Of a DNA stretch of 35,879 bases, positions 1-35,879 are shown piece by piece. Made by a program: the position numbers and the translations under genes. The DNA is from Jimgerdemannia flammicorona. Its lineage: Eukaryota. Where the stretch lies: contig RBNJ01000235.1 in assembly GCA_003990765.1 (NCBI GenBank), forward strand, positions 1-35,879. The letters are read 5' to 3'. Position 1 is the stretch's first letter, and every line of letters begins with the position of its first letter. The notes below the pieces were generated by a model that was not told the origin of the DNA, made no database searches, and saw only the letters and a program-made list of their open reading frames with translations.

Positions 1-22
1 AAAAAAAAAAAAAAAAAAAAAA
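1..22 (+). repeat. poly(A) run truncating the A1 5' LTR (possible 3' tail of a non-LTR retroelement)
   Basis: 22 A's at the window edge, followed directly by sequence matching the interior of the A1 3' LTR (~8597 onward). Confidence 0.6.
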
Positions 23-893
23 GTTAGAAGAGTTCTAGAATCTCATTCTCCAGGATAATTCAGATCAATTTCTGCAAAGATTAATCTTGATATTCTAAGG
101 CCCCAGTATTTAGGTCAGATCCCCTCAAGATCTCACCTTTGTCTTCTACTTTGTAGAGAAAAATATCATAGATTGATCTTCTTTCTGCTACTGTCAAATA
201 TATATGATAATATTACTAGTAATGATATTATCTTGCTAATTGATATGTATGAAATATATAAAATGAATAAAATGCTTACATAAATGTTCACTGATCTTAT
301 TTCCTTTGAAAACATCTCATTACTGATCTTTAGCCTTAATGATAGCAATGAAGACAAAGCCCTCAGAATTTTGAACATTTTACTTTAATTTGTTTATATG
401 ACTATTTGTTTGAATACTTGAATATTCTGATATTCTGATCTCATATAACTGTCAGAAATTATTTCAGCATTCTGATCTTATATAACCAATTGTATGAGCA
501 CTCAAATTTATACTTATAACCTAAAGTTTTCTGTATTCAAATATCTTATTTAGTTATCAAATTTTATATTTAGCTTTATATCTTAGTATTTATTGAATTA
601 TATTCTATATAAATACCCCTCTTATTTCCTTTGAAATAAAGTCAGTATTAAAACACTTAAGTATTCAAGTACCCAACTACTCAAGAGTATAAAAGTTCCA
701 GTTCTCTACTAAATTTTATACAAATAAATCTAAGAGATAATAGAATAGTTTAAAGATAAGAAGTTTAAGGACTATAAGACCTTAGAAAGGCACTTTAATA
801 GAACTTGCTTATAAGAAACTTATTATTGGTCTAAGAGATATATCTTGAAGAGAATCTGATATACTTGGAGAACTCAGCACCCACTATATAACA
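23..893 (+). repeat. A1 5' LTR (5'-truncated)
   Basis: Colinear with 8597-9480; ends ...CTATATAACA immediately before the PBS. Confidence 0.9.
608..640 (+). promoter_or_regulatory. LTR TATA box (TATAAATA 608-615) and AATAAA (635-640)
   Basis: The same pair recurs in every family A LTR (e.g. 11446-11478). Confidence 0.6.
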
Positions 894-5772: not shown

Positions 5773-7779
5773 TGTAAGCACACAACCTCTAAGCCACTGA
5801 AATCATACATCACTCTCTGAACAAGCCATTGAAATTACATGTGACCTCTGAACAAATCTAGAAATCACCTGCAAGATCATGAAGCTGAGTGAAACTGAAG
5901 TCACAGCATATAAAGCTAAGTTAATATGAAGTTATAGAATACAAAAATTATACAAATAGGATCTTATCAATTAGGACCAAATGCCTATATCAAGCACTAA
6001 GATATGTTGAAATAGAGAACTACAACAAACCAAACAAACAATTCCAACTTCTAAACATATATACAAACATGACCACTGATATCTACAACTGCATCCATAC
6101 TGACATTTGAAATGCCATTGTCAACTGAGCCACACCTCCTCTGCCCCTCATGAATATCTATAGCTTAGCACCCCTCTACATCATGGAAGCCTGATAGAAT
6201 ATTCTGAATATACTTAGCAAAGTCCACTGAATCAGACAAATCTCAAGCTACTACCAGATCAGCTGTCTCCTAGAAGACATGGTTGAATATTACTACAATA
6301 TAGACATTTTCCAGATATCTCAATATCAGAAGCTTATTACTTGCAAATACCAAGAACTCTTTTATGAGTATAGCACTATTATTTCCTATCTCTGAGTTAC
6401 TACTACCAATATAGTTGCTACTCTATTCTATGGCCAAATTGATAATATGATATAAGAACTCAACCACAAGTATATTGAGTATATTCAAACCACAGACAGA
6501 ACCTTCTCATACCCCAATGACTATATCTTGCAAATGCTCTAAGTTGGATATACCATGAAGGACATTTATGATATAATCCAGTTCGATAACAATGAAGCAG
6601 AAGACAACAATCTCTCCAACACTGACATAATCTCAAGCCAAGGATCTCTGCTAATCCTGATCACCCTACCAATTTTGCTGATGAACTTACAATAGTTTAT
6701 AATCACCTATGAGACTTATTGGAACAATGATCACTAGTATAAGTATCAACTAATATTTATCTCTAATTACTTTAACTATAATGAAGAGACCAGAGAATAT
6801 AATCTATATCTTCAGACAACCCTCAAGATCAAACCAACAACTCCACCACTCAAGTATAAGCAATATGAAGTACAACTGCCAGTATACTACAACTCTGCAA
6901 CTCATAGCACTATAACTTATAGAAGGTATGCAGACAGCAAATCTGATGAAAGTGAAGATGATACACTCTTTCTTCACCCACCAACTCCTTATCCAGTATA
7001 TGAGACAGATGATACTATCCTATGAGATAGTGATGAAGTTTCAATATATTATTACCTCAACATATAAGGAAAAGTAATCCATAAATAACTCTTTTTAGAT
7101 AACTACTTCATCAGAGATAATATCATCAATAGTGATATCATCAAAGACTACCCAGATAGTGTTTAAATCTATAGATAGTCTAGCAGTCATAGTATAGTTA
7201 GATTAGCCTTATACTATATGACTGCATTCCAACTTAGCAAGGCACTAAGTGCTATATCTATATCTAGCCTAGTCTAGATAGCCTCTCACTAGTATAAATA
7301 TCCCCTCCCCCAGACCTCAGAATCTCAGACTTGAATACATAAGAACATTTCTAAGCACTTCTCCACAATATTCCTTCATATAACTACTACTAGTATAGCA
7401 ATATTATAAATAGCAAATAAACCTATTTAATAACCCACAAACCACTCTTAAGTAAATCTACTCTCCATTAGATCCTACTCCTAACCCTATCATGGAATTT
7501 CCTAATTGGGTATTGTCTATAGCGATATATCAATTCAACTAAGCTAGTCTTAGTTTCTTAAACTTCCTGAAATATGGAAAATCCTGAACATCCAGAACTA
7601 GTCTGAAAAAAGACTTTGGTTGAGACATTAATTTGATCTTGAAATCAATAAGTATAGAGGATGTACTCTATATGAAATTGATCTTGACCTTAAGAAAATA
7701 GTCTTCCAGAATATCCAGAACTTCCAGAAAATCTTTACAGAACTATGTAATAGTTACCCTAACAAGTAACCCTCTTATA
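5773..7779 (+). mobile_element. Solo LTR of a third family (C), ~2.0 kb
   Basis: Absent from the colinear A3 integrase; termini TGTAAG...CTTATA (= CTTACA with C>T); flanks TTATC/TTACT fit a 5-bp TSD of TTACC in the empty site; TATAAATA 7293-7300 and AATAAA 7416-7421. Confidence 0.8.
6069..7167 (+). pseudogene. Accessory ORF3 homolog inside solo LTR C (3' end approximate)
   Basis: Reads MTTDIYNCIHTDI(R)NAIVN(R)ATPPLPL...SYYQISCLL...QKLITCKYQELF when transition-derived stops are reverted; aligns with the family A LTR ORF. Confidence 0.7.
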
Positions 7780-8179
7780 TTACTCCAAGAGAACTACTCT
7801 TTAGAGAAGATTCTGATTGATAGATTGACTTAGAAATCTGAAGACTATACTAAATTAGGAAGAAGACAGAAGATTATATTATCAAGTTATAAGAATTAAT
7901 AAGAAAGAATGCAGAAAAGAATCACAAGACCCTAGAACCCATTCAAATTGGAGAAAAGGTCCTACTGTATTAAAATATAGTAGAAGCCTTATAATTATAA
8001 AAACTGAAACCCAAATAGAAAGAACTCTTCTATATATAAGATATCAAAAGAACTACCTTCTGACTTAGAAAACTCTCAGAGACCATACTATCTACTATGA
8101 TATACAGAAACAGACTCAAGAAGTATCATGAATCTATATAAGGTCCAGGAATCACCAAGACTTCTCAGTTCAAGAAAGG

Positions 8180-8968
8180 ATGTTCCAAGATATCAGGAGA
8201 GCTATGAGAACCTATATTAGAAGGATTTCTAGTCTTAATATAGGTATTAGTAATTCTTACTACTTTACTCTCTACTGCTATAAAATAGAGATAAGAATTA
8301 CTACTGCTACCAAATATCTCTGAATGTAGTAGAAATATAAAATATAAAACCTCCTCTATTGGGAATTCTCTCAGGCCAGCCTCCAAGAGATATAAGATAA
8401 TACCTCTATAGATATATATAAATTGAGGATAGCCAAAAAGATTCATCAGGTCTTCAGATATGCACCTTGGTCACTCTCCAACTTGGAGTATATCAGAGTC
8501 TCAGACTTTAAGAAATTATCAGCCTACTATACAGATGTACCTGAAGTCATGATAGCTATAGAAGTCCAATCTACCATCACTCTCAAAAGTGATAAGGTAG
8601 AAGAATTCTGAAATTCCATTCTTTAGGACAATCTAGATCAATTTCTGCAAGAATTAATCTCAGTATTTCAAGGCTCCAGTATTCAGGTCAGACCTCCTCA
8701 AGATTCTACCTTTATTCTCTACTTTATAGAAGAAAACATTATAGATTGAAGAGCTCCTGATCTCCTTCCTACTACTATTGAACATGATGACATCACTGGC
8801 AATTATGTTATCCTGTTAATTGATATGTACAAAATATATGAAACAAATGAAATACTTACAGAAACATTTACTGACCTTATTTTCTTTGAAGACATCCTAT
8901 CTTTGATCTCTAGTCTTAATGACAGTAATGAAGATGAAGCCTATAGGATTTTGAACATTCTACTCTAA
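8180..8968 (+). pseudogene. Accessory ORF3 in the A1 3' LTR (~262 codons)
   Basis: Same frame at start, middle and end: MFQDIRRAMR...RIAKKIHQVFRYAPWSLSNLEYIRVSDFKKL...ILNILL*; internal stops are transition-type. Confidence 0.78.
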
Positions 8969-10179: not shown

Positions 10180-11684
10180 TATAATAGTGACCTCAGAATG
10201 ATGACATCAGTACAAGAGTCAGCCTTTCCTTATAAGTCACCAGATTGGAATACAAGAAGATCATATGGCATAACTCAGGCTATAAGATGAGTAATGGTGA
10301 CCAACTATGAGTCATTGTGACCACAGTTTAGGCATTTTGAGAAATATAAAAGAAGGATCAAGAAACTACAGTAGTAGCAACCAATAAGACCCACTAATTC
10401 CAAAATAGCTCAAAGACTTACCACAAATGAAATATCTGCTACTTGCTAAACCTTAAGGTCAAGGAACTACCAAGGTATCTCAGTTGAAGAAAGAATGTTC
10501 CAAGATATCAGAGGAGCCATGAGGACCCATATAAGAAGAACTCCTAGCCTCAACCTGAGTACTGTAGATCCTTATCACTTTATCCTCTACTGCTATAAAA
10601 TGGAAACAAGGATCACCATTGCTACCAAATATCTCCAAATATGGCAGGAGTATGAAATAGAAAACCTTCTCTGCTGGGAGTTCTCACAGGCCAGCCCCTA
10701 AGAATTACAAGACATCACTCTCATGGATATACAAGAAGCAAGGATAGCTAAGAAGATTCATCAGATCTTCAGACATATACCATGGTTGATCTCTAACTTG
10801 GAGTATATTAGAGTCTCAGATTTCAGAGATCTGTCAGTCTATTATATCAATGTACTAGAAGCCAGAGTGACTACAGAAGCCCAGTCCACTATCACCCTCA
10901 ATAGTGATAAAGTAGAAGACTTCTGGCATCTCATCCTCTAGAACAACTCAGATCAATTTCTGTAAGGATTAATCTCAGTATTCTAAGGCCCAAGCATCTA
11001 GGTTAGATCTCTTCAAGACCCTACATTTATTACTTATTTTGTATAAGAGAACCTCATAGATTGGAGAGCCCCTGATTTTCCCACTGCCAAACATAATGAT
11101 GTCATTGGTAATAATGTCATCTTATGCAATATACATAAAGCATACAAAATGCACAATCTATGTGATAAGACTAAAATGTTCATGGATCTTATCTTCTTTG
11201 AGGACAGTGATGATGAGGATGAAGCCCCTATGGTCCTGAACATTCTGCTCTAAGTCTCTTAGTTACACTGAATTATGCCAGCATCCTTTTCCTATATAAT
11301 AGCTATTTCTCCATTAGCATTCTGAATCTGTGCAATCATCTATACTGACCCTGAAACTTGGCGGTTTTCTGTGTTCCAGCATTTTATTTGATTATTGGAA
11401 TTTATATTTAGCTTTATATCTTAGCAACTATTGAATTATATTTTGTATAAATATTCTTCTTATTTCCTCTGAAATAAAGTCAGTTTTAGTTCACTTATAC
11501 ACAATCTCTTGCAAGCAATATAAAGAGATAATAAGACAGTTTAAAGATAAGAAGTTTGAGGACTATAAGACCTTAAGAAGACACTCTAATAAGAACTTGC
11601 TTATAACAAACTTGAGTTAGTCTAAGAGATATACCTTAAAGAGAATCTGATATATTTGAAGGACTCAGCAACTACTATATGACA
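10180..11684 (+). repeat. A2 5' LTR (1505 bp)
   Basis: Starts TATAATAGTGACCTCAGAATG (= TGTAACAGTGACCCCAGAATG of A3); ends ATGACA. Confidence 0.9.
10495..11253 (+). pseudogene. Accessory ORF3 in the A2 LTR
   Basis: Track ORFs 10495-10701 and 10723-10941 share a frame that continues to ...MVLNILL* at 11253. Confidence 0.8.
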
Positions 11685-16751: not shown

Positions 16752-17228
16752 ACTTCTTCCTAAATAGGTAATTCATCTCTAAAATATTCTATTCAAACTT
16801 CCAAGCTTCTATGATTTATATCTCCTTGTACTGTGCAATTTGCACCATTATATACTTTCAGTATTATCTCTTGATATATCTGAAGTCTTCTGAAACTACT
16901 TCATAAAGATAGACTAGAGCTGGCTCATTGTCTTTAAACATCTTATTGACTTGTTTGGTAGTTGTGATCTGAGTTTAAGAGAGCTGGTACTCTCTAATCT
17001 AGTCTTCTTTTCCCATATCTGACTATAAGTTTAATAGCTATCCTAACTTGAAGTATTTTTGAAACTTGGTTCAGTTCTAGTAGGTCTTAAAGTGTGAGAT
17101 TTATAACAAGTATGTCTGAACTATACTCTATATACTGTCAAAGGATTCTTCTATAATCAGTGGCTCAGTAGTACACCATTGTCTTTCTATGGCTCACTGT
17201 ATAGTACTGATGATCTTGAGTACTCCAT
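16747..17228 (-). pseudogene. Accessory ORF3 of B, between integrase and PPT (~160 codons)
   Basis: LKIISTIQ(R)AIERQ...KFQKYFKLG(Q)LL...TTKQVNKMFKDNEPALVYLYEVVSEDFRYI; the ATG at 17228 needs a 1-nt indel to be in frame. Confidence 0.65.
16753..16761 (-). other. B polypurine tract
   Basis: AGGAAGAAG one base before TGTGAT. Confidence 0.6.
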
Positions 17229-17231
17229 TAG

Positions 17232-17750
17232 TTAGTCATGATACTTCTTGAGTTGGTTTCAGCAAATAGTAGTAGGGATGATTATTTCTATAAGTTTTCA
17301 TAACCAAAAGGTAGTCTCTTTTATATCTTGCACAAGATAAGGTCCTTCTCACTTAGACTTTAGTTTTCATGACCATGAAGCTTCTACCATGTTCTGATAT
17401 ATCAGGACCTTATCTCCTATCTTGATAATCTCTAGGGGCTTATGGATTTTTTCTGTATTATTCCATTGTAGTGTCTGCATCTTAGTTATGTAATTCTCAG
17501 CCTTCTTTATAATTTGGTATAGTCTCTATATTTCTCTGTCTACACATTTTCATACAGTATTCCTATTAGATAATAGAGTTTCTTGAGAACTTTCTTCTCT
17601 GAACAGCATTTTCCAGAGAGTGAAATGAGTGCTTTGTGATCAAATATTTCAGAGAGCAGATAATACTATTGATAGATAGTGATCTCAGTTTTCATAGTTA
17701 TTACAGATCTTGGCAATAATATTCTTAAGAGTCTTATTGGTCCTTTCTGT
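17232..17750 (-). pseudogene. B integrase, C-terminal part
   Basis: ERTNKTLKNIIAKI ... EGPYLV ... NQLKKYHD*. Confidence 0.85.
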
Positions 17751-19244
17751 TGTCATGTAGTGGTCGCTGAGTCCTTCAAATATACCAGATTCTCTTCAAG
17801 ATGTATCTCTTAGACTAACTCAAGTTTGTTATAAGCAAGTTCTTATTGGAGTGCCTTCCCAAGGTCTTATAGTCCTCAAACTTCTTATCTTTAACTATCT
17901 TGTTATCTCTTAGATTGCTTGCAAGGCAGTGTATATAAGTGAAATCAGAACTGACTTTATTTTAGAGGAAATAAGAGGGGTATTTATACAAAATATAATT
18001 CAATAGTTGCTAAGATATAAAGCTAAATATAAATTCCAATAACTAAAACTACTAAGTTCCAGAGTTGGTACTGATGGTTGTACAGGTTCAGGATACTGGT
18101 ATAATTCAGTATCACATCAGAATACTGATGCTGGAATAATTTCGTGTTATCTCAGAATACCAGTGCTGGTATTATCTAGTGTAATAAAGAACTTAGAGCA
18201 GAAAGTTCAGGACCATGGAGGCTTCATCCTCATCATCAGAGGTCAGGATATCTTTGAAGGAGATGAGGTCCACAAATTTGTCATTTTTGCATACTTCAAT
18301 GTTGTGTGGAGTGACATCATTGCTGATGATGTCATCACATTTAGTGGTAGGAAGGAGGTCTGGGGCTCTCTAGTCCATGAGGTTCTCTTCCACAAAATAG
18401 GGGACAAATGTGGGGTCTTGGGGAGATCTATCTCAGATACTTGGGCCTTGGAATACTAAGATCAATCCTTGCAGAAATTGGTCTGGGTTGTCTTGGAGGA
18501 TGGGGTGTCAGAAGTCTTCTATTTCATCACTATTGAGAGTGATAGTAGACTGGGCTTCTGTAGCCACCCTGGCTTCTAGTGCATTGATATGGCAGGATGA
18601 CAGGTCTCTGAAATCTAAGACTCTAACATACTCCAAGTTGGGGATCGACTATAGTGCATGCCTGAAGATCTAATGGATCTTCTTAGCTATCTTTGTTTTG
18701 CATATATCCATAGGAGTGGCATCTTATAGCTCTTGAGTGCTGGCCTGTAGGAACTCCTGGCAGAGGAGATTTCCTATTTTGTACTCCTGCCACATTTGGA
18801 GGCATTCAGTAGCAATGGTGATCCTTGTTTCCATTTCATAGTAGTAGAGGATAAAGTTATAGGGATCTGCAGTACCCAGGTTGACACTAGGAGTCCTTCT
18901 TGAGCAGGTCCTCATGGCTCTTCTGATGTCTTAGAATATCCTTTCCTCAACTAAGAGGCCTTGGTAATTCCTTGATCTTGAGGTTTGGCAGGCAGTAGGC
19001 ATTTCATTTGTGATAAGTCTTTGAGCTATTTTGGGATTGGTGGTTCTTGTTGGTTGCTGCTACTGCAGTTCCTTGATCCTTCTTTTATATTCTTCAGGAT
19101 GCTTGTACTGTGGTCACAATGACTCACAGTTGGTCATCATTGCTCATCTCATATGCCATATGATCTTCTTGTACTCTGATCTGGTGGCTTGCAAGGAAAG
19201 GCTGTCTCCTGTGCTGATGTCATTATTTTGGGGTTGCTGTTACA
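17751..19244 (-). repeat. A3 3' LTR (1494 bp)
   Basis: TGTAACA...ATGACA on minus strand; colinear with 24940-26418. Confidence 0.95.
18193..19002 (-). pseudogene. Accessory ORF3 in the A3 3' LTR
   Basis: Same frame as track ORF 18724-18915; ends ...MVLNFLL*. Confidence 0.78.
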
Positions 19245-19253
19245 TCTTCCCCT
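19245..19253 (-). other. A3 polypurine tract
   Basis: AGGGGAAGA abutting TGTAACA. Confidence 0.85.
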
Positions 19254-19556
19254 GAATAAGGATCTTCCTGAACATCCTTATTCATTGGTCCAGTCCTGAA
19301 AAATTTGCTGATCCCATAACCTCTGGCAAGGGGTTGAAAAGTGGTATTTATGGGCTGGTGTCTTCCCTTTGTATTTTGGTGTGATGGTGAAGGGTTGCTC
19401 CCTTCATATAGAGCAAGGGCCTGATTCTGATCTTGACCAATCAGTTGATGGTTCAAACTCCTCTAACTTCGAAAGTCTCATGGATAAGTAGTTACCAGTG
19501 CCATATCCCTTAGTGAATGGTCCAGACAGATAGCCTGCTGGTCATGGGACATACTG

Positions 19557-20804
19557 TTATGATTTGCAGACTAGAACCTTATGGGCAGTCATCACATTTT
19601 GCTTCTCTTGTATAGGTTTGTGGTACTTCTTGAGTCTGTTCCTATGTACTGTAGTAGGTAATATGGTCCCTGAGATTTTTTTAAGCCAGATGGTGGTTCC
19701 CTTGATATCTTGTACATAGAAGGGTTCTTCTCATTTGGGCTCCAGTTTTCGCAACCATGAGGCTTCTACCATATTTTGATACAGTAGAATCTTTTCTCTG
19801 ATTCAGATGGATTCTAGGACCTTGTGATTCTTTTCCACATTCTTTCTTGTTAGTGCTTGTGACTTGGTGATGTAATCTTTAGCCTTCTTCCTAATTTGGT
19901 ATAGTCTCTGGATTTCTGCATCAACCCATCTCTAAGTTAGGTTTAGATTTGTGGCTGAGGTTCCATCAGAATCTTCTTCTCTGAAGAGCAGCTCTCTTGG
20001 GGTAAAGTGTGTACTCTGTGACTATATATCTCATAGGATAGAGAGGGCAGTTGGGAGATAGTTATCCCAATTCTCATATGTCTCTGAGATCTTCACTAGG
20101 ATGTTCTTGAGAGTCTTGTTAGTTCTCTCTGTCTATCCATTTCCTTGAGGGTGGTATACAGTGGTCTTGATGTGCTGGATCTTGTATTTCTGATATATTA
20201 TCTCATAAAATCTATTGACAAATTCTGTTCCATAGTCTGTTGTGATTTGTTTTGGTATCTTGTAGCAGCAGATGATTTCTCAGTACAGGAAGTCAGCTAT
20301 AGAGAGGACATTGGCTTCTTGTAATACTCCTACCTCTATTCATTTGGTGAAGAGGTCTACAATAACTATAATATAGCGGTTTTCTGATAGTATTACTGGT
20401 AGTGGTCCAATGATATCCATTGCAATGTGGTGGAAGGAGATAGGCTCAATTCTTGATGACTCAGGTGCCTGGTCTTGCTGATCTTGTTTCTGTTTTTGGC
20501 ACTTGTCACACCCTTTGACAAATTGGTGCAGGTCTTCTTCCATCTTGGATCACCACATAGTTCTTCTTGTCTTATCATATGTGTTAGTTCCTCCTAAGTA
20601 TCCTTGCTTGTGTACTTCCTTTATTACTTGATACTTCTTGTGTTTGGATATTACTAGCTTTTCTCCTTTTCTGAGTGTAGTGTTGTCTAGTTCAAACTGT
20701 TTTCAAGTTTGGTTGATAATAGTGATTATCCAGGGTTTGAGGTGGTTGGTCATCTTCTGCTGCCCAAGATAGCTGATTAATCCATAGTATAGCTCTTTAT
20801 TCAT
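19557..20804 (-). pseudogene. A3 integrase (separate ORF, MNKELYYGLISYL...); 3' end approximate
   Basis: HKQGYLG...CDKC zinc finger, AMDIIGPLP, TDYGTEF, YHPQGNG(Q)TER, KLEPK..EPF, RNRLKKY. Confidence 0.92.
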
Positions 20805-23800
20805 ATTGAATAGTCTTGATGGGGATGTTTTGGGGTATCCTTGAGAGTGCATCGGCATTGGTGTTGGTCTTTCCTGAGTGGTGCTTGACAGTATAGTCAT
20901 ACTCTTGCAGCCTGTAGATCTATCTGGCATATATTCATTTAGAGTTCAGAGTGTGGAATAGCCAGGTAAGAGCAGAGTGGTCTGTTTGAATGGTGAAGTA
21001 TTTCCCAGATAGGTAGTAGTGGAACTTGTCTACTGCCCAAACCACTGCTAAGCATTCAAGCTTATATGACTCATAGTTCTGTTCTGCTCCATAGATACCT
21101 CAGTTTACATAGGAGATGAAATATTCATATCCATCTTTCTTCTGAGCTAGGACTTCTCCAAGTCCTATAGCACTTGCATCTGTCTGCAGGATGAATTCTA
21201 GATTCCAGTCTGGTCTTCTGAGGATAGGTGCTTGGGTCAACCTGGTCTTGAGTTCATTGAAGGTTTCTTGGTGCTCCTTGGTCCATTCAAATTTGGTCTT
21301 CTTCTTCAGTAGCTCATAGATAGGTGCTACAATGTTGAAGTATCCTTTGATAATTCTTCTGTAGTAGCTGGCCAGTCCAAGGAAGGCATGGACTTCTGTA
21401 GTTATTCTGAGTCTTGGGTAGACTGCAACAGCCTCAATCTTCATAAGGTCTGTATAGATTCTGGTCTGGTTGATGAGGTGTCCTAGATAGGCGATTTCTT
21501 GAGCTGCAAACTTAAATTTCTTGGGCTTGATGTAGAGGCCATGCTCCTTGAGCTTCTTGAGGGCTAGCTGTATGTAATTGATATATTCCTATATAGTGTT
21601 GCTGAAGATGATCACATCATCAACATAAACAAAGAGCCATTTTCCAATATCATTGCTGAAGACTCTGTTCATCATTTGCTGGAAACTTGCTAGGGCATTG
21701 TACATTCTAAATGGTATTCGCAGGTAGATATAGGTGGTATCAGGTGTGATGAAGGCTGATTTCTCACTGGCATCTTGAGTGAGACCAATTTGATGGAAGC
21801 CTGAGAACAGATCCAAGGTGGTGTAGTATTTGGCTTTGCTTCTAAGAGTGATAAGGATCTCTTGAATATTTGGCAAGAGCTGTCTATCCTTCTTAGTGAT
21901 GGCATTGAGCTTCCTGTAGTCAATGCAGAGTCTTGGCACAAACTCTCCAGGTTTGCTTCCTTTCTTCAGGGCAAGGACAATGGGTGAGGCCCAGGGGCTG
22001 ATAGCTTGCTTGATGATTCTGACTTCTTCCATTTTCTTGAGTTCTGCTTACAGCCACTCTCTGTAGGCAGGTGGTATGGGTCTGGCTTTCTGGTAGATGG
22101 GCTTGGTATTACCAGTGTCAACTTCATAGTAGTACTTGAGTTCTTGATTGTAGATATCCCTGAAGTCTGTAGCAAGTACTCCTTCATTCTGGTGCAGGAT
22201 CTTGAGAAGTTGTTCCTCCAGGGGAAAGCTTTCTCTAATGGTATATGTGTGCTTGTTCTAATCCTTGTCTTTCTTATGTTCAAGTTTGGTAATCTTGGTG
22301 GTAGCACAGGCTCCTCTTCCAGTAGATCCAAAGCCTTGTTCTCCTCTCTTGGTCTTGATGAGTTTGATGGCTTCAATGATCTTGGGTTTCTTGATTTCAT
22401 AGATCAGCATCTGGCCAATCCTGTCATGCTTCTTGACTTCGAATGGGGTGGTGGGGTTGTGATTCCTGACTATGAGGAAGATCTCACCAGTGTAATTAGG
22501 GTCAATTACTCCTCCTTCAACTGAGATTTCACTTTTGGCCAAACTGCTCCTGGTCTTGATAATTCTGGCATGGTTTTCTGGCAGCTTGACTCCAATTCCA
22601 GTGCCAAGTAGGGTGGTGGTCTGTGGTTCAAGGGTAGCATCTTAAATGCTGGTAAGGTCCATTCCTATGGATCCTTTAGTCTTGTATTCTGGGATCTTGG
22701 CTTCAGGGTGAAACTTCTTGACCTTGAGGGTGATGTCTGATTCTTGTTCCTCCTTATCATCACTGTCAGCTTGAAGCTCTGGGGGCTGGTCATATTCTTT
22801 GGCTTTCCTTTTTGCTTTGGTGGCTTCTTGCTCATGTTTCTGTTGGTGGATTTTCCTGACTTCACTGATACAGGACCAGCAGTCATTCAGGTGTTCAGAG
22901 CAGTACATCCTAGTACCATGGGGGCATCTTCCTTGAGGGGCATACCTATCGATGATCTTGTTGTACCACTGCTCATTTGTGAGCTTGGGTGTTTTGTTCT
23001 TGTTCTTGTTCACCAAGTTCATGAAGACCTCTGTGTTCTCTTCATCTCCTTCCTCCATGTCTGGTAGAACTCTCTTGTGGACATTGATAGAGACTTGTAC
23101 CTTTCTTCCTCTATAGTTGATCTGCATTTTCTGGGCATTGAGGTCAATGATGGCCTTGGCCTTGTGAAGCCATTAGTTGCCAATGAGGATGTCATAGTTG
23201 GTGGTGCTTGTAACAATCACATCTACTGGGATGGTAGCTCCTCTTATCTTAATGGGGACTTCTCGAATTTTGCCAAAGGGGGTAGCTTATGTACCATCTG
23301 CTGTAACATAGACCATCTTGGTGGACTCTTCAATGTCCCAGCCTAGGTGGTTAATTGTCTTCTTGCTCATAAGGTATTCTCCAGCACCAGTATCAATGAT
23401 GGCATCAAAGATACAGTCTTCGATTTGACATAGAGTATAGGCTGATATCTTGCACTAGTCTTCAGATTCTTCACCTAAGTTCTTAGATTCTTCCTGTACA
23501 TTGTGAGCTTCTACAATCTTGTACTCTTGATTCTTAGCAGTAGTTGCAAGTCCTACTCTCAACTGCTATCTGAAGGCAGGGACTTTGACTAGCTATCCAA
23601 AAGTGGCATTGACCTTCTGTTCCTTGAGATTCTTATAGATATCATACTGGTGGATCTTGGTCTTGTGCAGCTTCTGTTCCTTCTTGCTTTCACTTTCTCC
23701 TGAGACTAGAGTAGTATCTTCAATGATTTGGCAGACAGCTTCATCTAACTCTATGTCTTGATCAATCTCCTTGAGTTGGGTCTTGCTTTGAATATTGACA

Positions 23801-24868
23801 GCTGGGGTCTTCTTTGGTCTTCCAACTGGCTTATATTACTCTTCTTATCATAGAGCTTGGACTGGGTTCTGGTACCTTCAGTAGCAGGGTAGAATTCAAG
23901 CTCCTCATAGTATTCTCATCATCAGTGTTACCAATCTCCTTGATGACTACTGTATTGGTTTGTTCTCTGGTTCTGCTAGCATTACTTGGTTGGGCTTTGC
24001 ATCTTGTTTTGGTCATGCAATTCTTTGCATAGTGGCCTTCTTCTCCATATCTGAAGTATGTGATATTGTGTTCTTCTATAGTAGCTGCAAATCTCTGCAC
24101 TGGTCTTCTGTTGGTACTTCAGACTTCTCTAACAACATTACCAAGGTATGCAGTCATCTCAGTGAACTACTTGGCGAGTTCCTCCACTGGGCCAGCTTTG
24201 GCTGTCTTGGGGGTAGGTGGGGTTGGTTGTCTGTTTACAACTATAGCAGGTATGATACTAGTTGGCTTTGATGGCTCTATCTTGATGCTAGTTATTTTCT
24301 CTATTGAGTGTTCAGCAGGGTGTCTGGCAGTCCAATATCTCTGTGCAAAGACTACTTTCTAATCAAGGGTCAGTACAGCTGGGGTAGACTGGATTGCTAG
24401 AGTAATTTCAGGGTGAACTCCTTTGAAGAAGATTGAATCTGCTATTTGTTCTTGAGGTGGTCATCATAGCTAGCCAAGACAATCTGGTGGCAGATTCAGA
24501 TATAGAATGAGTTGGGATCTTCACTAAGTCTCTAGCAGATAGTATTGAGTTGATCCTTGAGAGCTTGCTTGATTTCTTCAGTATAATATGTTGTTCTGAG
24601 GAAGGTCTTTATGTTGGCAAGTGTGGCTGTACCAGCATCAGCAATAGTGGCTGCATTGAACTTATCTCTGGCAGGTCCTCTGAGGCTGACTGGTAGAAGG
24701 GCCAATTGAGCATCCACACCAAGGGCTCATATGGCAGCGAATTGTTCAAAGTCTTCAATGAAGATCAGGATTGACTCTTCAGTAGTATATCCATAGAATG
24801 TGAGGGGGCACATTTCTATCTTATTTTGAATTCTTACAGAAGTGACTCTTGTAGTCAGAGTAGTTGTT
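20797..24868 (-). pseudogene. A3 Gag-PR-dUTPase-RT-RNase H polyprotein pseudogene (start approximate)
   Basis: Track fragments 24717, 23127, 22542, 22032 and 21444 are in one frame; AIIDTGAG, SPWASPIVL, VYVDDVIIFS, QTDASAIGLG, NADALSR. Confidence 0.95.
22318..22730 (-). pseudogene. dut: dUTPase domain within A3 pol
   Basis: GSIGMDL, RSSLAK, GGVIDPNYTGEI, DRIGQML, RGEQGFGSTG = motifs I-V. Confidence 0.95.
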
Positions 24869-24918
24869 GTGGGGGTTGTTCATTTTTTAGCTTGAAAGTG
24901 AGAGATTTGTCTTGAATC

Positions 24919-24936
24919 ACCAGCCAATGGGCACCA
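24919..24936 (-). other. Primer-binding site of A3
   Basis: TGGTGCCCATTGGCTGGT, 3 nt after the 5' LTR. Confidence 0.85.
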
Positions 24937-24939
24937 AGT

Positions 24940-26418
24940 TGTAATGTAGTGGTCACTGAGTCCTTCAAATATACCAGATTCTCTTCAAGGTATATCTCTT
25001 AGACTAACTCAAGTTTGTTATAAGCAAGTTCTTATTGGAGTGCCTTCTCAAGATCTTATAGTCCTCAAACTTCTTATCTTTAACTGTCTTGTTATCTCTT
25101 AGATTGCTTGTAAGGAAGTATGTATAAGTGAAACCAGAACTGACTTTATTTCAGAGGAAATAAGAGGAATATTTATACAAAATATAATTCAATGGTTGCT
25201 AAGATATAAAGCTAAATATAAATTCCAATAACTAAAACTACTAAGTTTCAGGGTCGGTGCTGATGGTTGTACAGGTTCAGGATACTGATATAATTCAGTG
25301 TCACATCAGAATACCAGTATTGAAACAATTTTGTGTCACCTCAGAATACCAGAGCTGGCATTATCTGGTGTAACAAAGAACTTAGAGCAGAAAGTTCAGG
25401 ACCATAGGGGCTTCATCCTCATCATCAGAGGTCAGAATATCTTTGAAGGAGATGAGGTCTGCAAATTTGTTATTTTTATATGCTTCAATGTCACATGGGA
25501 TGATGTCATCACATTCAGTAGCAGGAAGGAGGTCTGGGGCTCTCCAGTCTATGAGGTTCTCTTCTACAAAATAGGGGACAAATGTGGGGTCTTGGGGAGA
25601 TCTAACCTGGATACTTGGGCCTTGGAATACTGAGATCAATCCTTGCAAAAATTGGTCTGAGTTGTCTTGGAGGATGGGGTGCCAGAAGTCTTCTACTTCA
25701 TCACTATTGAGAGTGATAGTGGACTGGGCTTCTGTAGCCACCCTGGCTTCTAGTGCATTGATATGGTGGGATGATAGGTCTCTGAAATCTGAGACTCTAA
25801 CATACTCCAAGTTGGGGATCGACCATGGTGCATGCCTGAAGATCTGATGGATCTTCTTAGCTGTCCTTGTTTTGCATATATCTATAGGAGTGGCATCTTG
25901 TAGCTCTTGAGTGCTGGCCTGTGGGAACTTCTAGCAGAGGAGGTTTCCTATTTCATACTTCTGCCACATTTGGAGATATTCAGTAGCAATGGTGATCCTT
26001 GTTTCTATTTCATAATAGTAGAGGATAAAGTGATAGAGATCTGTAGTACCCAGGTTGACACTAGGAGTTCTTCTTGAGTGGGTCCTTATGGCTCTTCTGA
26101 TGTCTTGGAACATCCTTTCCTCAACTGAGATGCCTTGGTAATTCCTTGACCTTGAGGTTTGGCAGGCAGCAGGCATTTTGTTTGTGATAAGTCTTTGAGC
26201 TATTTTGGGATTAGTGGTTCTTATTGATTGCAGCTACTGTGGTTCCTTAATCCTTCTTTTATATTCTTCAGGATGCTTGTACTGTGGTCATAATGACTCA
26301 CAGTTGGTCACCATTGCTCATCTCATATGCCATATGATCTTCTTGTGCTCTGATCTGGTGGCTTGTAAGGAAAGGCTGTCTCCTGTACTGATGTCATCAT
26401 TCTGGGGTCACTGTTACA
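24940..26418 (-). repeat. A3 5' LTR (1479 bp)
   Basis: TGTAACA...ATTACA on minus strand. Confidence 0.95.
25382..26176 (-). pseudogene. Accessory ORF3 in the A3 5' LTR (264 codons, one premature stop)
   Basis: Track ORFs 25931-26176 and 25382-25810 are in frame; the TAG is TGG/CAG in other copies (ancestral CGG). Confidence 0.85.
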
Positions 26419-27094: not shown

Positions 27095-30000
27095 GATTGA
27101 TTTGCTGGTTGGAGGTCCTTCAGAGTATCTATGAGAGGGTATCTACATTGGCATTGGTTCTTCCTGAGTGATGCATAATGGTTATATCATATGCTTGCAA
27201 CTTTATAATCTATCTGGCATAGATTCCTTTGGGTTGTCCAGTGGTCAGTAGCCAAGTGAGAGCTGAGTAGTCTATCTGAATAGTGAAGTATCTTTTGGTG
27301 AGATAGTAGTGGAACTTTTCTATAGTCCAGATAACTATGAGATATTCTAACTTATAAGATTCATATTCTTTTTTGGCTCCTCAGATCCCTCAGCTTAAGT
27401 ATACAATGATATACTCCACTTTGTCATTCTTTTGAGCTAGGACTGCTCCTAGTCTTTGAGTACTTGCATCTGTCTATAGGATAAATTCTTGAGTCCAATT
27501 AGATTTCCTGAGAATAGATGTCTGAATCAATCTGATCTTAAGCTCATTGAATGCTTTTTATTACCTACCAGTCTATTGAAACTTGGTATTCTTCTTGTTG
27601 AGTTCATAGATTTGGCCTACAATATTGGAGAATTCTCTAATAAATCTTCAGTAGTAGGAGGTAAGTCCTATGAAGGCTTGGGCTTCAGTAACTGTGATAG
27701 GCTTTGGGTATGCTGCTACTGCTTGAATCTTGAGAGAGTCTATGTATGTTCTATCTAAATTAATGATATGGCCAAGATAGATAATCTTGATTTCTACAAA
27801 CTTGTACTTCTTGGGCTTAATGTGAAGACCATGCTGTCTCAGCTTCTCTATTATCTGCTAGATGTACTACAGATATTCTTTGGCTGTCTTGCTGTAGATA
27901 ATAATGGCATCTACATAAACTATCATCCATCTTCTCATATTATAGTAGAAGATTTTGTTCATTATTTACTGGAAGCTTACAGGGGTATTGCACATTCTAA
28001 ATAGCATTTGCAGGTAGATATAGATTCCATCTGGAGTGATAAAGGCTGATTTCTCACTTACTATTTCTGTGAGTCCAATTTGGTGGAATCCTGAGTATAG
28101 ATCCAAGATACTATAGTATTGTATTTTATCTTCCAGAGTTATAAGGATGTCATTAATAAGGAGCAGTGATTGGCAATTCTTCTTAGTAACTATGTTGAGC
28201 TTTCTATAATCAACACAGAGTCTTGGGGCAAATTCTCCAGGCTTATTTCCTTTCTTCAGAGTTAGTATAACTGGTAAAGACCAGAGGCTGCCAGTCTCCT
28301 TAATAATACTGGCTTCTTCTATCTATTTGATTTCTTCTCTGAGCCATTCTCAGTAGGCTGGTAGGACAGGTCTTGTCTTCTGGTAAATTAGTTCAGATCT
28401 CCAGTATCTACATCATAATAGTAATGTAGAGTCTTTTCTTTGATATCCTTGAAGTCCATGGTAAGGATATCCTCAAATTTGTAAAGTATTTTCTTGAGCT
28501 CCATCTTGAGTGAGAATTTATTTCCAATAGTATAGCTATACTTATTTGTAGTTTCTTCTTTCTTATGCTTCAGCTTGGTAATCTTAATATAAGTAAATAC
28601 TCTTCTTTCTGTAGATTCAAATCCTTTCTTTCCTCTTTCTGTTTCCTCCAACTTCTTGACTTCTATAATCTTTGGCTAAAGAACTGGGAAGATCAATATC
28701 TATACTAGTCAGTTCTTCTTCTTGATTGGGAATGGAATCATAGAATTGTAGTTCCTAGCAATAAGTAGTATTTCTCCAATATAATCCAAATTGATGACTT
28801 CTTCTTCAATTGTGATTTCACTTCTAGCCAGGTTGCTTCTTATCTTGAGGATCCTGATATAGTCCTTTAGAATGATCACCTCTAGACCAGTTACAAGTAG
28901 AGTGATTGTCTGAGGTTTGAGTACAGTTTTCTCCACTATGGCAATATCTATTCTAGCTATATTTTCTGACTTATATTCTAATAAGACTGTATTAGGATAA
29001 ATCTTCTGAATCTTGATCTTGATTTCTCTTCATTATCACTATCTTTGAAAAGAGCTGATGGTTCATCATCCTCTTCTTCTTTCATTTTCTTTTCTTCTCT
29101 TATCTGTTTCTTGAGGGCCTTCTCTCTTCTTTGGTAATAGATCTCTTTAATTTTACCAGTGCACTGATAATACTCATTGACATGCTTTATACAGTATATT
29201 TAGATCCCATAGAGGCAGACTTCTTGTGGTGCATATCCTTTTATAATCTTCTTGCACCAGTCTTTTTTGCTCATCTATCTGATTTTCTTCTTCTTTTTCT
29301 GAGTTGTTACTATGTAGGCTTTCTCTTGTTCACTCTTTTCTTTCTCTATCTCAGGCAGGACTCTTTTGTTAATATTGATGGAAATTCATATCTTCTATCT
29401 ATAGTAGATAATCTGCATCTTCTGAGTATTTAGATTGATTATTACCTTAGCTTTATGAAGCCACTGGTTACTGATAAGAATGTTATAGTTGGTTGTATTG
29501 ATAATAATTATATCTACTGGAATGATTACTCCTCCAAACTTAATGAAAACATCTCAGATCTTTCCCAGAGGTGTGGCTCTTGTACTATCTGCTGTTATGA
29601 ATACCAATTTGGTTGCTTCTTCAACTTCTCAATCTAGGTAGTCTGCTGCTTTCTTACTGAGGAAGCATTCTTCTATATTGAAGACTCTATCCTCGATTTG
29701 ATAGATTGTATAGACAGAGGTCTTACAGTTATCTTCACTTTCTTCTCCTGAGTCCTTTTGAACATTGTTGGCCTCAGTTATCTTCTATCCTTACTCCTTG
29801 GTTGTTTTAGTAAGTTCAAACCTCATTTGCTATCTGAATGTAGGTATTTCTGCTAGCTGGCTGAAGGTTGCATTGACTTTTTGTTGACTGAGATCCTTGA
29901 AGATATCATACTTAAAGGTCTTGGTTTTGCAAAGCTTCTTCTTCTTTTCTCCTTCACTGGCTGAAGTGGTTCCTCAGATGATATCTTGAATAGCCTGTTC

Positions 30001-30095: not shown

Positions 30096-30278
30096 TCTTG
30101 TAGAGTTCTTTGCAGATATCCTTCTTACATCTTTCTCTGATAACATTCAGATTATACAACTTTCTGACAATATTCATGACACAGTTTTTGAAGAAAAGAT
30201 ACTAATATTATAGTGACTAATGAGTATTCTAAGAAGCATATTAGACAGGGTGGCTCTGGTGCATTCAACTGACAATAT

Positions 30279-32220
30279 ATGGGGAGGGACCCTGGCTTGG
30301 GGGGAAGCATGAGAGGCCTGCTGATAGGAGGATGTGGAAGGGAAGGGGGCAGTACTGGAGGACAGGGGACTGGGAGAGCAAGCTTCACAGATAAGATAAA
30401 GGGGGGTCAGCAGAGAACTGGACTGGAGGGTTGGCTGAGGAAGGACAAGGAGATAGTAAGGACTGTGGAGCAGTGGCTGCAGGGGGGAGTCTCTCTGGGG
30501 GGCCAGAGTAGTGGGGCTAATAGTGTAGCAGCTGAGGGGGTGACTGCTGATGAGAGCATGATGGGTAATTTGGAAAAAAATCTAGATGGAACTGCTGATG
30601 ATGGACCAAGCTATGGGAAAGACATAAGGCCTAGTGACTTGGCTGATAGTATAATGGGCCTGGCAGTGGCTCCATTACTCAAGAAGTTGATCTTAGAATT
30701 TGTAGTCACTCTGTACTTCTGAGGCTTGACAGTGACAGCAAAGATAGTTTTAGGGCTAATTATAAAGCAGATGGAGGGAGCAGCATTGGTGAAGTTCCTG
30801 AGGGACTTGAAAGAGGTAGAGGTGGGCTTTGAGAAGGCTGAGCTGTTGGAAGCTACACTAAAGATAGAGATAGCTGTTGGAGAGGTATATATTCCAATAG
30901 TATAATACTTGAGATAGGACCCTAGGGTGATACAACTTCTGGTGAAAGGAGTGCTCACAGTGATGGCTATAGAGATGAGGAGAAGAGTAAAGGAGGTCAT
31001 GACTGAGTATAGAGAGGTAGTTGATGTTAGCTTTCAAGTCTGGGAAGAGACTATGTTCAGAACAGGGGATGTTGATGTCCAGCTTTGGCTGGCAGAGAGA
31101 GAGACTACTGGGAAGACTCATGATTGACTATTAGTGATGGTGTGGAGGGCCTTTGTATACAAGGTAATGAGGGTGAAGGAGAGCAAGAAGGAGGAGGAGG
31201 ATTTATTAGAGACATTGGAGGAGATGAGTAGAGTAGTTGAATAGAGGGTGAAGGCTTGAAAGATGTATGTAGAGTTGACATATTTGGAAGTTGTGAATGG
31301 GAAACATATCTACATTGACAAGAAGCTGTGAGAGAGATCTCAAGGGTATAAGAGACAGAAGAAGTTATTGGTGAGCCTGGAAGAAAGGGCAAAGAAGAAT
31401 GCTGGTAGCACTATAGAGTCTGGGGGTTCTGGAGCAAGTGTCTGGGCCAATAAGAGAGAAGAGAATATAGAGAAGAGTCTGGAGGAGGCTGAGAAGATGC
31501 CAAGCAATGATCCATATGTGGATGGTACATTCAAAGTCTGGGAAGACACTCCCTCTCTTATCAGACAGAGTCCAGCTACAAGAGGCTAGGTAGTGGAGGA
31601 TGTACCAATATATGATATCTAGTAGATATATTTTAGAGTTCCTGAGATAGTGAAAGGGGGACAGGTGGTGGTAGTTGACAAGGATGAACTAGTAGATGTC
31701 TCAGAGGAGGAGTGGGATAAGTCTGTGAGTATAGGGGCAGATATATCAATACTGGATACTAGAAGGCCAGCAACTCTAGGGGGGAAGGAGGTGGGAAACC
31801 TTCTTTGGTTGTGCCAGATGATGAACAACTTTGCAGCTAAAGAGTTGAGAGAAGTGGACTTGAGAGTGGTGAGTGATGAGTATTAGGCATGGGTCCTGCA
31901 TAGAGATAGAGTAGTGGAGGCTCTAAAGGCAGAGATACTTGCAATTTTCCTAAAGAAGAAAGGGTATGAGGTTAATAAGGAGAGGGAGGCTGAGCTGACA
32001 GTTGTTGCTGGTGAGCAGGTAGCCTTTTGTTGGGCTGAGCATTATGGATTGTAGCTCTGGCAGAAGGCCTGCCTAGAGTATTATGAGGAATTTGAGGAAA
32101 AAGAGGATGGAGAGATGGCTGAACTTCTGGTTGGATTAGAGGCAAAGACAGCTAAAGAGGAGGAATTGGCTGCAGAACATAACTTAGACTTGACACAAGA
32201 GGAGATAAGTGTGGATTTAT
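30279..32220 (+). pseudogene. Putative LINE ORF1 remnants
   Basis: Series of plus-strand fragments (30279, 30927, 31368, 31650) upstream of ORF2; no diagnostic motif recognised. Confidence 0.5.
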
Positions 32221-32234
32221 AGAAGATAAGCTTA

Positions 32235-35200
32235 ATGATTAATATTATTCCTTATAAATAGTACAACAAACATATTCTCTATGAATGTGAATAGATTACA
32301 GAGATTGGTTCAAAGACAAAACATTTTTACATGGATAAAGGAACTGGGGGCTGATATTTTTCTATTGCAGAATATCAGATATGAGGATGACTTGGATCAA
32401 CTAGAGTGGATGAAGAAATGAGGAGATGTGGTAGTATAGAAGGGCAAGGTTGGGATCTTGGTCAGGAGGGGCAAAGGAGAGATATAGGATGTAGAGGGCT
32501 AGGGGGACTAGTTGGTGTGGGGAGAGTGGTGTTGACCTGGTTGAGAGCTGGTTATCATGAGTTTATACTACTGTCCTACTGTGCAGGGTGAGCAGATGGA
32601 GTGGGTGAAAGGTCTTTGAGAAAGTGGGGTCTTTATGGAGACTAGAGTAGATATTCTTGGAGGGGACTTTAATATGGTCCAGGATATACTGGTGGATAGG
32701 ACTGATGGAGGGAGGGGTGCTGAGAGTCGAAGTGGGGGCCTGAGGGCATAGGAGGATGTGAAAAGGCTGGGCTCTCTGATAGATACTGAGAGGGAATTCT
32801 GGGGAGATAGAAGAATATATGTATATACACTGGGAAAATGGCCTAGAGATGAGGATCAACTGGGTATTGATGGCAGATTGTTGGGGGCTGGATATTTGGA
32901 AGTCACTAGAGGCTGAGTGGTGTCTATGGTCTGATTATTGGAAGCTATTGGGACAGGGACATTTTGGGGGGAGTGGGGATAGACCTGGACATTAGTACCT
33001 AAATTCCTCTTTGTTGGATGAGAAGGCATTGTGGGATAAGTGGGCAGAGGACATTCAGCAGAGAGTGGAGAGTTGGGTATAAGAGGGTGTCACAATTAGT
33101 ATTTGATAAGTAAGGTTGAAGAAGGCTGCTAGAGTTTATTGAAGAGAGGTGGGCAAGATGGTAAGCAGATAGAGGAGACAGAGAGTGAACTGGACCTCTA
33201 CTAGACTGGTATGACTTTTGGAGAATTGGGCTGATCTCTTGGCCCTGGAGGGGGTGGAGGACTGGTGGCTGAGCTGGGCTAGGATAGAGCTATGACAGGT
33301 ATTGAGAGAAGAGGAAGAGATACAGATGTAAAGTCTAGCTGTCTGATTATGCTGGCAGGGGCTAAAGGAGGGGGAGAGGCCATCTAAATACCTTTCAAGG
33401 ATCCTGCAGGTAAGGAGAGTAAGGCAGAGGTGAGAGGGGGTACTGAATTTAGATAGACTACTGGTATATAGTTCACAGGACATTTTGGGCTTACTCAAGG
33501 AGAGGTGGAGCAGTTTGTGGAGTGAGGAGGAGGGGAGGGCTCCAGCTGCTACCATTGCACATACTTTGGAGGATTAGTACTCACTTCAAGTAGATGAGTT
33601 GAACAGTTTGGTGATACTAGTTCAGGAGGAGGAGATCCACTAGATACTTGCCATGACTATACTGGACACAGTATCTAGAGAGGATGGTCTGCCCTAGGAC
33701 TTTTGGAAGAGGATGCTGAGTGTACCTGGAGTGCTGGGAGAGATGATGGTGATGTGTAATTCAGTACTACAGTCAGAGAGGTGGGTGGGAGAGTAGGATC
33801 TGGGGCTGGTGGCACTGCTTTATAAGGACAAGAGTAGAAGGGAGGACTGGAAGAACTGGCAGCCCATCATGCTTCTGAACATGGATAAGAAGTTGGTCAC
33901 TAAGGTAGTGGTGGCAAGGCTGCAAAAGGTGGTCTAGCAAGTTTTGGGTGAGGAGTAGCAAGGCTTCATAGGAGGGCAGCTCATTAGGGATAGTATGGTC
34001 TGAGTATATGGCATTATTGAAGGAGCTCAAGCTTGTAGTCTAGATGAGAGACTGGTCTTCTTAGATCAGGAGAAGGCTTATGACCATGTGTAGTGAGTCT
34101 GGCTAGAGAAGGTTCTGAACAGAATTAGTGTCCCTCTGTAGTTTTGAGTAACTATGATCAGTCTACTGGAAAGGAGTAGAGTGGTGCTCTTGTGTAATAG
34201 GCATAGAGGGGTGGCATTCACTCTGGGGAGAGGTATTCCCCAGAGAGATCCACTGTCTTCTATTTTGTATGTTCTGGCCTTAGAGCTATTAATGGATAAG
34301 ATTTGGTAGAAGATAGTAGGGCTCTCTATATTTGGTATTGTGTGGAAGGTTGGAGCCTTTGTAGCTGACATAGTGGTCAGTTTAGAGTCAGTTGCAGATG
34401 TTGAGGAGCTTCAGAAAACAGTGAAGTGGTATGAGACACACTCTGGAGCTAAACTTAACTGGTATAAGTATAAAACAATGGTGTTAGATAATAGTCTGGT
34501 GGGAGGGAATGTCATTGGAATAATTGTTTCTACTAGAGAGACTTTGAGGTACTTGGACATCTATCTCTCTGTATATGGATCAGTCCTGCTACATACATAC
34601 CTGATGGGAGCAATGAGTGGCCATATAGAGGGAGATCCTGTGAGATTGGAGAGGCTGCCACCTGTCTTTGGCAGGGTGCATTGCAATTTTGAATGTCTAC
34701 TGGCTGCCAAAGTTGTGGTATTTGGCATATCATCTGGACTTTCTGGTCTGGGTAGTGAAGAGGCTATTGAAGCTGGCCAAAGATTGGATCTGAGCTGGGT
34801 GGAGGAGCCAGATTAGCTGAAAAATCTTGTCACTGTCAGTGGCTAGAGGAGGCCTTGGGCTGGTTGACTTCCCAAAGAGGCTATATTGTCTGAGAGCATA
34901 GTGGCTAAAGAGAGCCATGGAACTGAGGGGTGGTAGTTGGATTCCCCTGATGAAGAAGGTCTGAGAGATAAGGTGCTCACCAAGAGGAACTATTGGTGAT
35001 TTACTATTCTTAGTTGGGCTGCCAAACAGGAGACAAATGCAATTCAAGGGCTTCTGGTAGAGAGTAGTTAATGGGGCTCACCACATTGGGATTTGCTGGC
35101 AGAGAGATAAAGGAGAGAAGCTGTGGGATCCAGTAATATGGAGATGAGATTGAGTGTTATTGGGGGGTACTCCTCTTTTGGACTTTGATATTGGCAATAG

Positions 35201-35800
35201 GGTGGAGTGCCAGAGGGGGATGGGACAGAATGTATGGCCTAGTGACTGACAGATGGCAGAAATTGGAGAAGAGTGAGACTGGAATAGAGTCTGGGCCTAG
35301 AGTGCAGCAATAAGGTATTGGTTACTACCTAAGTACTGGGTGGTTTGGTGGTACATGCTGCAGAGGAATATTATGCTCAACTTTCACTCAGGCTATCTTG
35401 TAGAGAAGAGGGACTTTGATTGTGAGGAGTGCTATAATGTAAGACAGAAAGAGGAATTTGAATAGATATCAGAACATTAACTGGGAGAGTGTGAGATACT
35501 TAGAGACTTTTGGTTAGTAGTTGGGAATAGGTTAGATATTGTGTACAGAGAGGATAGCAAGTAGAGTTGATGGGATGATCTGAGAGATAGATTGGTAGAG
35601 GGGGTGGGGAAGGAGTGGCTGACTTTGGGTTAGGTATTAGTGGTGTGGGTGAGACTGACAGGTCACTGGTAGTTTGTGTTTGAGGAGAGAAAGCAGTTGA
35701 GTTTGGAGAAGAGATTGGCAAGGTAGAAATGGCTGATGGAGGACATTTTAACAGACTGGTGACTGGGATGGAGTCTGTAGAGGGGTTAGTGGCACTAATT
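32235..35800 (+). pseudogene. LINE ORF2 (AP endonuclease + reverse transcriptase) pseudogene; ends approximate
   Basis: FSMNVNRL...DIFLLQ, ILGGDFN (~32651), WSDY, EDGLP, NWQPIMLLNMDKK, FLDQEKAYDHV, GIPQRDPLS, AFVADIVV, SGAKLN, RYLDI, RGGLGLVDF, CEEC...H...C. Confidence 0.9.
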
Positions 35801-35879
35801 GATAGAGAAAATCTGTAGATAGAGTGAGAGGAAAGTTGGAGTAGTGGGTAGCAGAGTGGTTTTCAAGTATGAGGGTATA

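Follow-up and report, generated by a model that had tools for sequence, protein, structure and literature searches.

Can the long terminal repeat (LTR) of a fungal retrotransposon carry a gene of its own? LTRs are usually regarded as free of genes, and the Ty3/Gypsy elements of fungi as made up simply of gag and pol. We analysed a stretch of 35,879 nucleotides from Jimgerdemannia flammicorona (contig RBNJ01000235.1 of assembly GCA_003990765.1; hereafter the window). Here, a frame of 264 codons lies inside the 5′ LTR of a Ty3/Gypsy element, which we call family A. The open reading frame (ORF) almost certainly is a real gene, of which the window holds dead copies, and it represents an undescribed family of accessory genes in fungal Ty3/Gypsy elements. 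Its placement here, in the U3 region, is one otherwise seen mostly in complex retroviruses. Our literature searches listed no report of this gene family or of genes in the U3 of fungal retrotransposons, and the part of a fungal LTR element survey available to us mentions no such gene (PMC3248453).

Evidence for a selected gene in U3

The ORF starts at LTR nucleotide 243, runs in the sense of gag-pol, and its product shares 72-80% identity with two open metagenome proteins. Its stop lies about 200 nt ahead of a TATA-like box and an AATAAA motif, and this downstream position of both signals places the ORF in U3, with the U3/R boundary drawn from the motifs. Searching the 231 Mb assembly (35354 contigs, one of which is the window), we obtained 6972 first-look candidates for family A, a figure that is not a copy number. 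All 68 family A loci fetched by DNA or protein similarity align to the LTR around the ORF, as do 29 of 29 loci of a second subfamily. We examined 67 complete LTRs and assigned 31 to the 3′ and 26 to the 5′ class, leaving three unclassed; the other seven are solo LTRs, defined by a 4-bp target site duplication (TSD) with neither polypurine tract (PPT) nor primer binding site (PBS), so that the predicted persistence of the ORF in solo LTRs is borne out. With the ORF wholly inside 5′, 3′ and solo LTRs and upstream of the predicted main promoter, the arrangement appears to be of the U3-encoded (sag) type. In consequence of this position, each insertion deposits two gene copies and a solo LTR keeps one.

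The first-pass annotation of the window had proposed an accessory gene at this place, and had named a dN/dS (ratio of nonsynonymous to synonymous change) near 1 and frame-breaking indels as frequent as in non-coding U3 as findings that would speak against it. Neither was seen for inherited changes. In 70 copies picked by DNA similarity, indels present in two or more copies were multiples of three in 20 of 21 cases in the ORF vs 10 of 38 elsewhere in the LTR (14/15 vs 12/36 when counted by distinct length); for private indels the figures were 14/42 and 26/93. Calculated from transversions only, the dN/dS of shared changes in family A was 0.39 over codons 1-215 (p 0.005-0.008) and 0.43-0.51 over the ORF as a whole; private changes gave 1.1-1.5. 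Families B and E, introduced below, gave shared values of 0.20 and 0.11 with shifted frames at 0.8-3.7, indicating strong selection, while families C and D had too few shared sites. Purifying selection acted in the spreading lineages, and neutral C>T/G>A decay followed insertion.

Several observations qualify this evidence. The shared indels in multiples of three all fall within the acidic tail and are not independent; the ORF core has 24 indels, two of them multiples of three. One non-coding frame also reached a dN/dS of 0.40 and frame +1 gave 0.50-0.60, and because these controls come near the ORF values, the dN/dS test alone is moderate evidence. In eight full elements the ORF core yielded 0.71 and the reverse transcriptase (RT)-RNase H region 0.24, neither being significant. 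Moreover, open frames were found in only 1/38 and 0/29 loci picked by DNA similarity (18/30 among loci picked by protein similarity, a choice biased to open frames), which together with the neutrality of private changes would fit a chance open frame or a passively carried captured fragment. We nevertheless regard such a non-gene as very improbable, since selection is visible in the inherited changes, and the start, the stop and the spacing of an upstream TATA-like box are conserved. Stronger than the indel and dN/dS tests is the deeper conservation across families: at the protein level the sequence is conserved between families although third codon positions are near saturation.

Five families and the LTR boundary

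The gene is not peculiar to family A. Unnamed metagenome relatives were found at 31-80% identity, and two of them, used as queries on the genome, led to further high-copy families. Homologues occur in four further families of the same genome (B, C, D and E), and RT identity is 34-58% among the five lineages and 35-58% between family A and the other four. With profile probabilities of 98-99.8 for A, C and D, 94% for B and 58% for E, we consider homology firm for the first three, good for B and probable for E, for which 15/15 loci match the same profile range. In the window itself, a profile search produced a faint match, and a second long decayed frame was spotted by eye. Better copies elsewhere comprise a family B ORF of 153 aa between integrase and PPT and a family E ORF of 365 aa in a 2-kb LTR. 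In family C, the integrase carries a chromodomain (recognised by eye) and is followed by the ORF, whose stop directly abuts the PPT; the family D ORF lies about 210 nt inside a long LTR.

The gene sits inside U3 in A, D and E, and between integrase and PPT in B and C; its location in U3 is thus not fixed, even between sister lineages. In the RT tree, C groups with E (99/97), and A and B stand together, separated from D, C and E (100/99); in both pairs, one member holds the gene within its LTR and the other outside it. This means that the gene has moved across the LTR boundary two or more times, or else was exchanged, and approximately unbiased (AU) tests do not require exchange. The A/B and C/E pairs illustrate the way in which a gene can move into or out of an LTR, and the gene itself provides an alignable marker for LTR evolution. 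A deletion in the window at about 8114-8141 (+) puts a family A ORF at the position where family B carries its own; a deletion of this kind between integrase and LTR could be one way for such a gene to switch PPT side. The family A integrase frame seems to extend by ~110 codons to the PPT (about 19245-19560, -), where family B holds its ORF. All five families carry a dUTPase in pol, located after the protease in A, B and D and before it in C; for A this is between protease and RT.

Decay of the gene copies

All four larger ORF copies in the window are dead through C>T/G>A decay, and open copies occur elsewhere in the genome. The earlier description of one frame per near-complete family A LTR holds for the frames at 8180-8968, 10495-11253, 19002-18193 and 26176-25382, which span 789, 759, 810 and 795 nt, all multiples of three, with a common stop and with 8, 6, 7 and 1 internal stops, respectively. 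It needs correction in two respects: the first of these LTRs is not near-complete, as integrase directly joins LTR nucleotide about 266 and the PPT, the upstream TATA and the first ATG are deleted, and the starts at 8180 and 10495 correspond to the second Met (about codon 23), unlike in the other two. The internal stops had also been described as transition-type and derived from CGG. In 71 copies (67 DNA-picked ones from the genome and the four of the window), 313 of 359 internal stops indeed differ from the sense codons of other copies purely by C>T/G>A, but the source codons are mostly TGG, CAA and CAG.

The number of stops rises as the CpG count falls (Spearman -0.85, 101 copies). T replaces C in family A LTR copies at a rate of 0.47 before G, 0.20-0.21 before A or C and 0.10 before T; as the change is also strong before A and C, the repeat mutation of this host is not restricted to CpG. 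Right behind the ORF stop (about 25285-25375, -) we noted a 35-nt tandem repeat, whose copy number varies between LTRs and which is also present in one fetched genome copy (its nt 1104-1213); it is a candidate binding or enhancer array.

Properties and possible function of the protein

The part conserved across the five families is a folded core of about 130 aa, helical in the predicted model, for which we found no significant database match and no Pfam family similarity. Its residues about 60-150 weakly resemble DUF3102 (PF11300) and the helix-turn-helix cores of ParB/SopB/VirB. An acidic tail with hydrophobic patches follows in A, C, D and E and is absent in B; it is predicted to be disordered (pLDDT under 50 from residue 218). 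While the tail varies in length in steps of three nucleotides, FADLISF/FADLIDF-like motifs and a terminal LNF are retained in A and C. The N-termini are basic and polar, and the first 45 residues are Arg-rich in A, C and D (7-9 K+R vs 2-3 D+E), a basic arm that B and E lack. Besides the acidic tail of the family A protein, the reported absence of a transmembrane (TM) segment was confirmed, the best 19-residue Kyte-Doolittle mean being 0.49-0.82 in three open copies. This largely refutes an env-like infectivity gene: although B and C hold the gene in sense orientation at the env position, between pol and PPT, a small soluble helical model with neither TM segment nor viral fold match makes an env-like ORF3 hardly credible.

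In one copy examined from each of the five families, a TATA-like motif lies 62-86 nt upstream of the ATG, combined with an A at -3, a pattern present in 4/402 background windows, and a similar TATA-like motif follows the ORF or the PPT in the LTRs of B, C and D. On this anatomy we tentatively propose that the product is a self-promoted DNA-binding trans-activator of the element, comparable to foamy-virus Tas. The gene, present in sense orientation in the U3 of 5′, 3′ and solo LTRs, would be transcribed from its own upstream TATA-like box into a short mRNA that stops at the poly(A) site of the LTR, which would make any LTR, solo LTRs included, a self-contained expression unit. The helical core might then bind DNA via its putative DUF3102/ParB-like helix-turn-helix, and the acidic tail might bring host coactivators to the main promoter of the LTR, which lies a short way downstream, in the manner of Tas. 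Two points limit this proposal: the resemblance to the helix-turn-helix proteins is below every significance threshold, and the promoter pattern was defined after inspection.

The first-pass annotation had offered a trans-activator or an anti-silencing protein as guesses, and guesses they both still are, with the anatomy leaning to the former. A sequence-specific anti-silencing factor would bind the element's own repeats and keep them free of cytosine methylation, in the manner of VANC proteins, which are reported to bind non-coding regions of their own transposons (PMC10398659, PMC5735166). Such a role would fit elements that are erased by host C>T/G>A change, with a window CpG observed/expected of 0.02 and stops that track CpG loss, as well as the variable tandem repeat behind the ORF stop. 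We think it unlikely, as the Pfam searches listed no match at all for the protein and gene-carrying copies are deaminated as much as their surroundings; it also overlaps with trans-activation, since both need DNA binding.

Somewhat less likely still is an RNA-binding factor for export, translation or packaging of element RNA, like Rev or C. elegans CERV, the latter being a reported precedent within a Ty3/Gypsy element (PMC10309623). The Arg-rich N-terminus would suit this role, and a phage translation repressor and the coat protein of a closterovirus, both at 0.92, are among the Atlas feature matches of the family B protein. However, the features shared with these matches number 141-146 of 256, whereas true family members typically reach 170. 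Nothing of the kind came out of the viral fold search, and B and E lack the basic arm. We give a similarly low probability to an adaptor that acts on host proteins or competing elements through acidic-hydrophobic tail motifs (Nef-like or in copy-number control). It would fit a disordered tail that keeps its motifs, possibly akin to clathrin-box or Atg8-binding motifs, which are common by chance, and it would profit from a U3 location that doubles the gene dose and survives in solo LTRs, but the conservation across the five families sits in the folded core rather than in the tail.

If the product is a trans-activator or an anti-silencing factor, it offers a testable cause of element spread to thousands of candidate copies in a heavily repeat-deaminating host. 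Going further, one could speculate, with little confidence, that fungal Ty3/Gypsy elements independently evolved a regulation in the style of complex retroviruses: DNA-binding trans-activators of a new, ParB/DUF3102-like family, each driven by its own promoter and perhaps derived from bacteria or phages, would have entered the LTR at least twice, and the many LTRs and solo LTRs of this genome would be expression cassettes able to act in trans on other elements and on host chromatin.

Organization of the window

The window consists of nested, decayed LTR retrotransposons (Table 1), and its CpG observed/expected is 0.02. We take the host to be a fungus, since its assembly contains fungal chitin-synthase domains (five matches above the Pfam cut-off, against 0 of 14 prokaryote controls). 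The family A host element is complete on the minus strand (5′ LTR-PBS-gag-protease-dUTPase-RT-RNase H-integrase-PPT-3′ LTR); its gene order together with PBS, PPT and a 4-bp TSD identifies it as a Ty3/Gypsy LTR retrotransposon, inserted into the integrase of an older family B element. Its PBS sequence has 925 exact matches in the genome and the reversed control none, and its two LTRs differ by 108 transitions and 6 transversions over 1459 sites. The third ORF copy belongs to the 5′ LTR (about 10180-11684) of another family A element. The family B homologue lies outside its own short LTR (about 16751-16281, about 470 nt), and a 2.0-kb family E LTR (5773-7777, +), inserted alone in an integrase gene, carries its own decayed U3 ORF. 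Flanks of LTR ends across the fetched family A copies are mostly TAT[AT]/ATA[GT]-like with target duplications of 4 bp, which suggests an AT-rich target preference. At about 30150-35879, a G-rich stretch with a plus-strand skew of up to 0.5 interrupts family B upstream of the protease and is probably another element on the plus strand.

Table 1. Features of the window related to the accessory gene and its host elements (PR, protease).
Feature	Position	Strand	Basis
Family A accessory ORF, 264 codons + stop, one internal TAG at codon 82	25382..26176	-	translation
5′ LTR, 1479 nt, TG..CA, ORF in U3	24940..26418	-	alignment, ends, PBS
TATA-like box TATAAAA, 87 nt upstream of ORF ATG, predicted ORF promoter	26257..26263	-	function inferred
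Second TATA-like box, located downstream of the ORF and predicted to be the main promoter of the LTR	25170..25179	-	function inferred
AATAAA, predicted poly(A) signal	25145..25150	-	inferred
PBS, starts 3 nt past LTR end	24920..24936	-	sequence
gag-PR-dUTPase-RT-RNase H-integrase of family A element, decayed, ends approximate	19560..24880	-	
PPT of family A element	19245..19254	-	
3′ LTR of same family A element	17753..19244	-	PPT directly before
Second ORF copy, 3′ LTR of same element, 7 internal stops	18193..19002	-	
Third ORF copy, first codon ATA; 6 internal stops after 10495, one before	10432..11253	+	
Fourth ORF copy, 3′ LTR without first ~265 nt, 8 internal stops	8141..8968	+	
Fifth copy, C-terminal remnant, LTR cut by window start (LTR end about 894)	18..385	+	
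Family B decayed homologue, about 153 codons, between integrase and PPT	16789..17239	-	core only
Family E decayed probable homologue, about 365 codons, end approximate	6069..7166	+	
dUTPase regions	22300-22725 and 28604-29014	-	

Comparison with known systems

With DUF3102 and ParB, the core weakly shares a long helix ending in Y/E-I-G-x-x-L, followed by a helix-turn-helix and a small bundle; in contrast, those are bacterial or phage proteins, and there is no direct profile match to ParB. The accessory ORFs (aORF/ORF3) of plant and bdelloid rotifer elements, which most copies carry, as a rule after pol and ahead of the 3′ LTR, in some cases under a promoter of their own and in some cases common to distant lineages, match the layout of families B and C (PMC7264820, PMC5408684). 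In the parts of these papers at hand, the described aORFs are internal only (PMC7264820, PMC5408684), whereas the present gene is located in U3 in three of five families. Nor is the present protein of the env-like, GDSL or DEDDy type.

No homology to Tas/Bel1 appeared among the matches listed in the Pfam, PDB and BFVD searches, and the Tas gene is not known to lie wholly inside the LTR. It is described as a 3′ accessory gene with an internal promoter, encoding a nuclear trans-activator that binds DNA and has an acidic activation domain at its C-terminus (PMC517496). The TATA-like box of family B, which lies inside the integrase coding sequence, resembles such an internal promoter; for the family A protein the likeness is one of logic, DNA binding and activation being predicted.

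Sag of the mouse mammary tumour virus (MMTV) is a membrane protein acting on T cells. The family A protein shows no sequence, fold or Pfam match to it and, lacking a TM segment, no membrane anchor; its host is a fungus and its element is of the Ty3/Gypsy type. Yet sag lies mostly in U3, has promoters including one in U3, is preserved in solo LTRs and evolves neutrally after insertion (PMC4667437), and the U3 position, the persistence in solo LTRs and the neutrality after insertion are all shared by the family A ORF.
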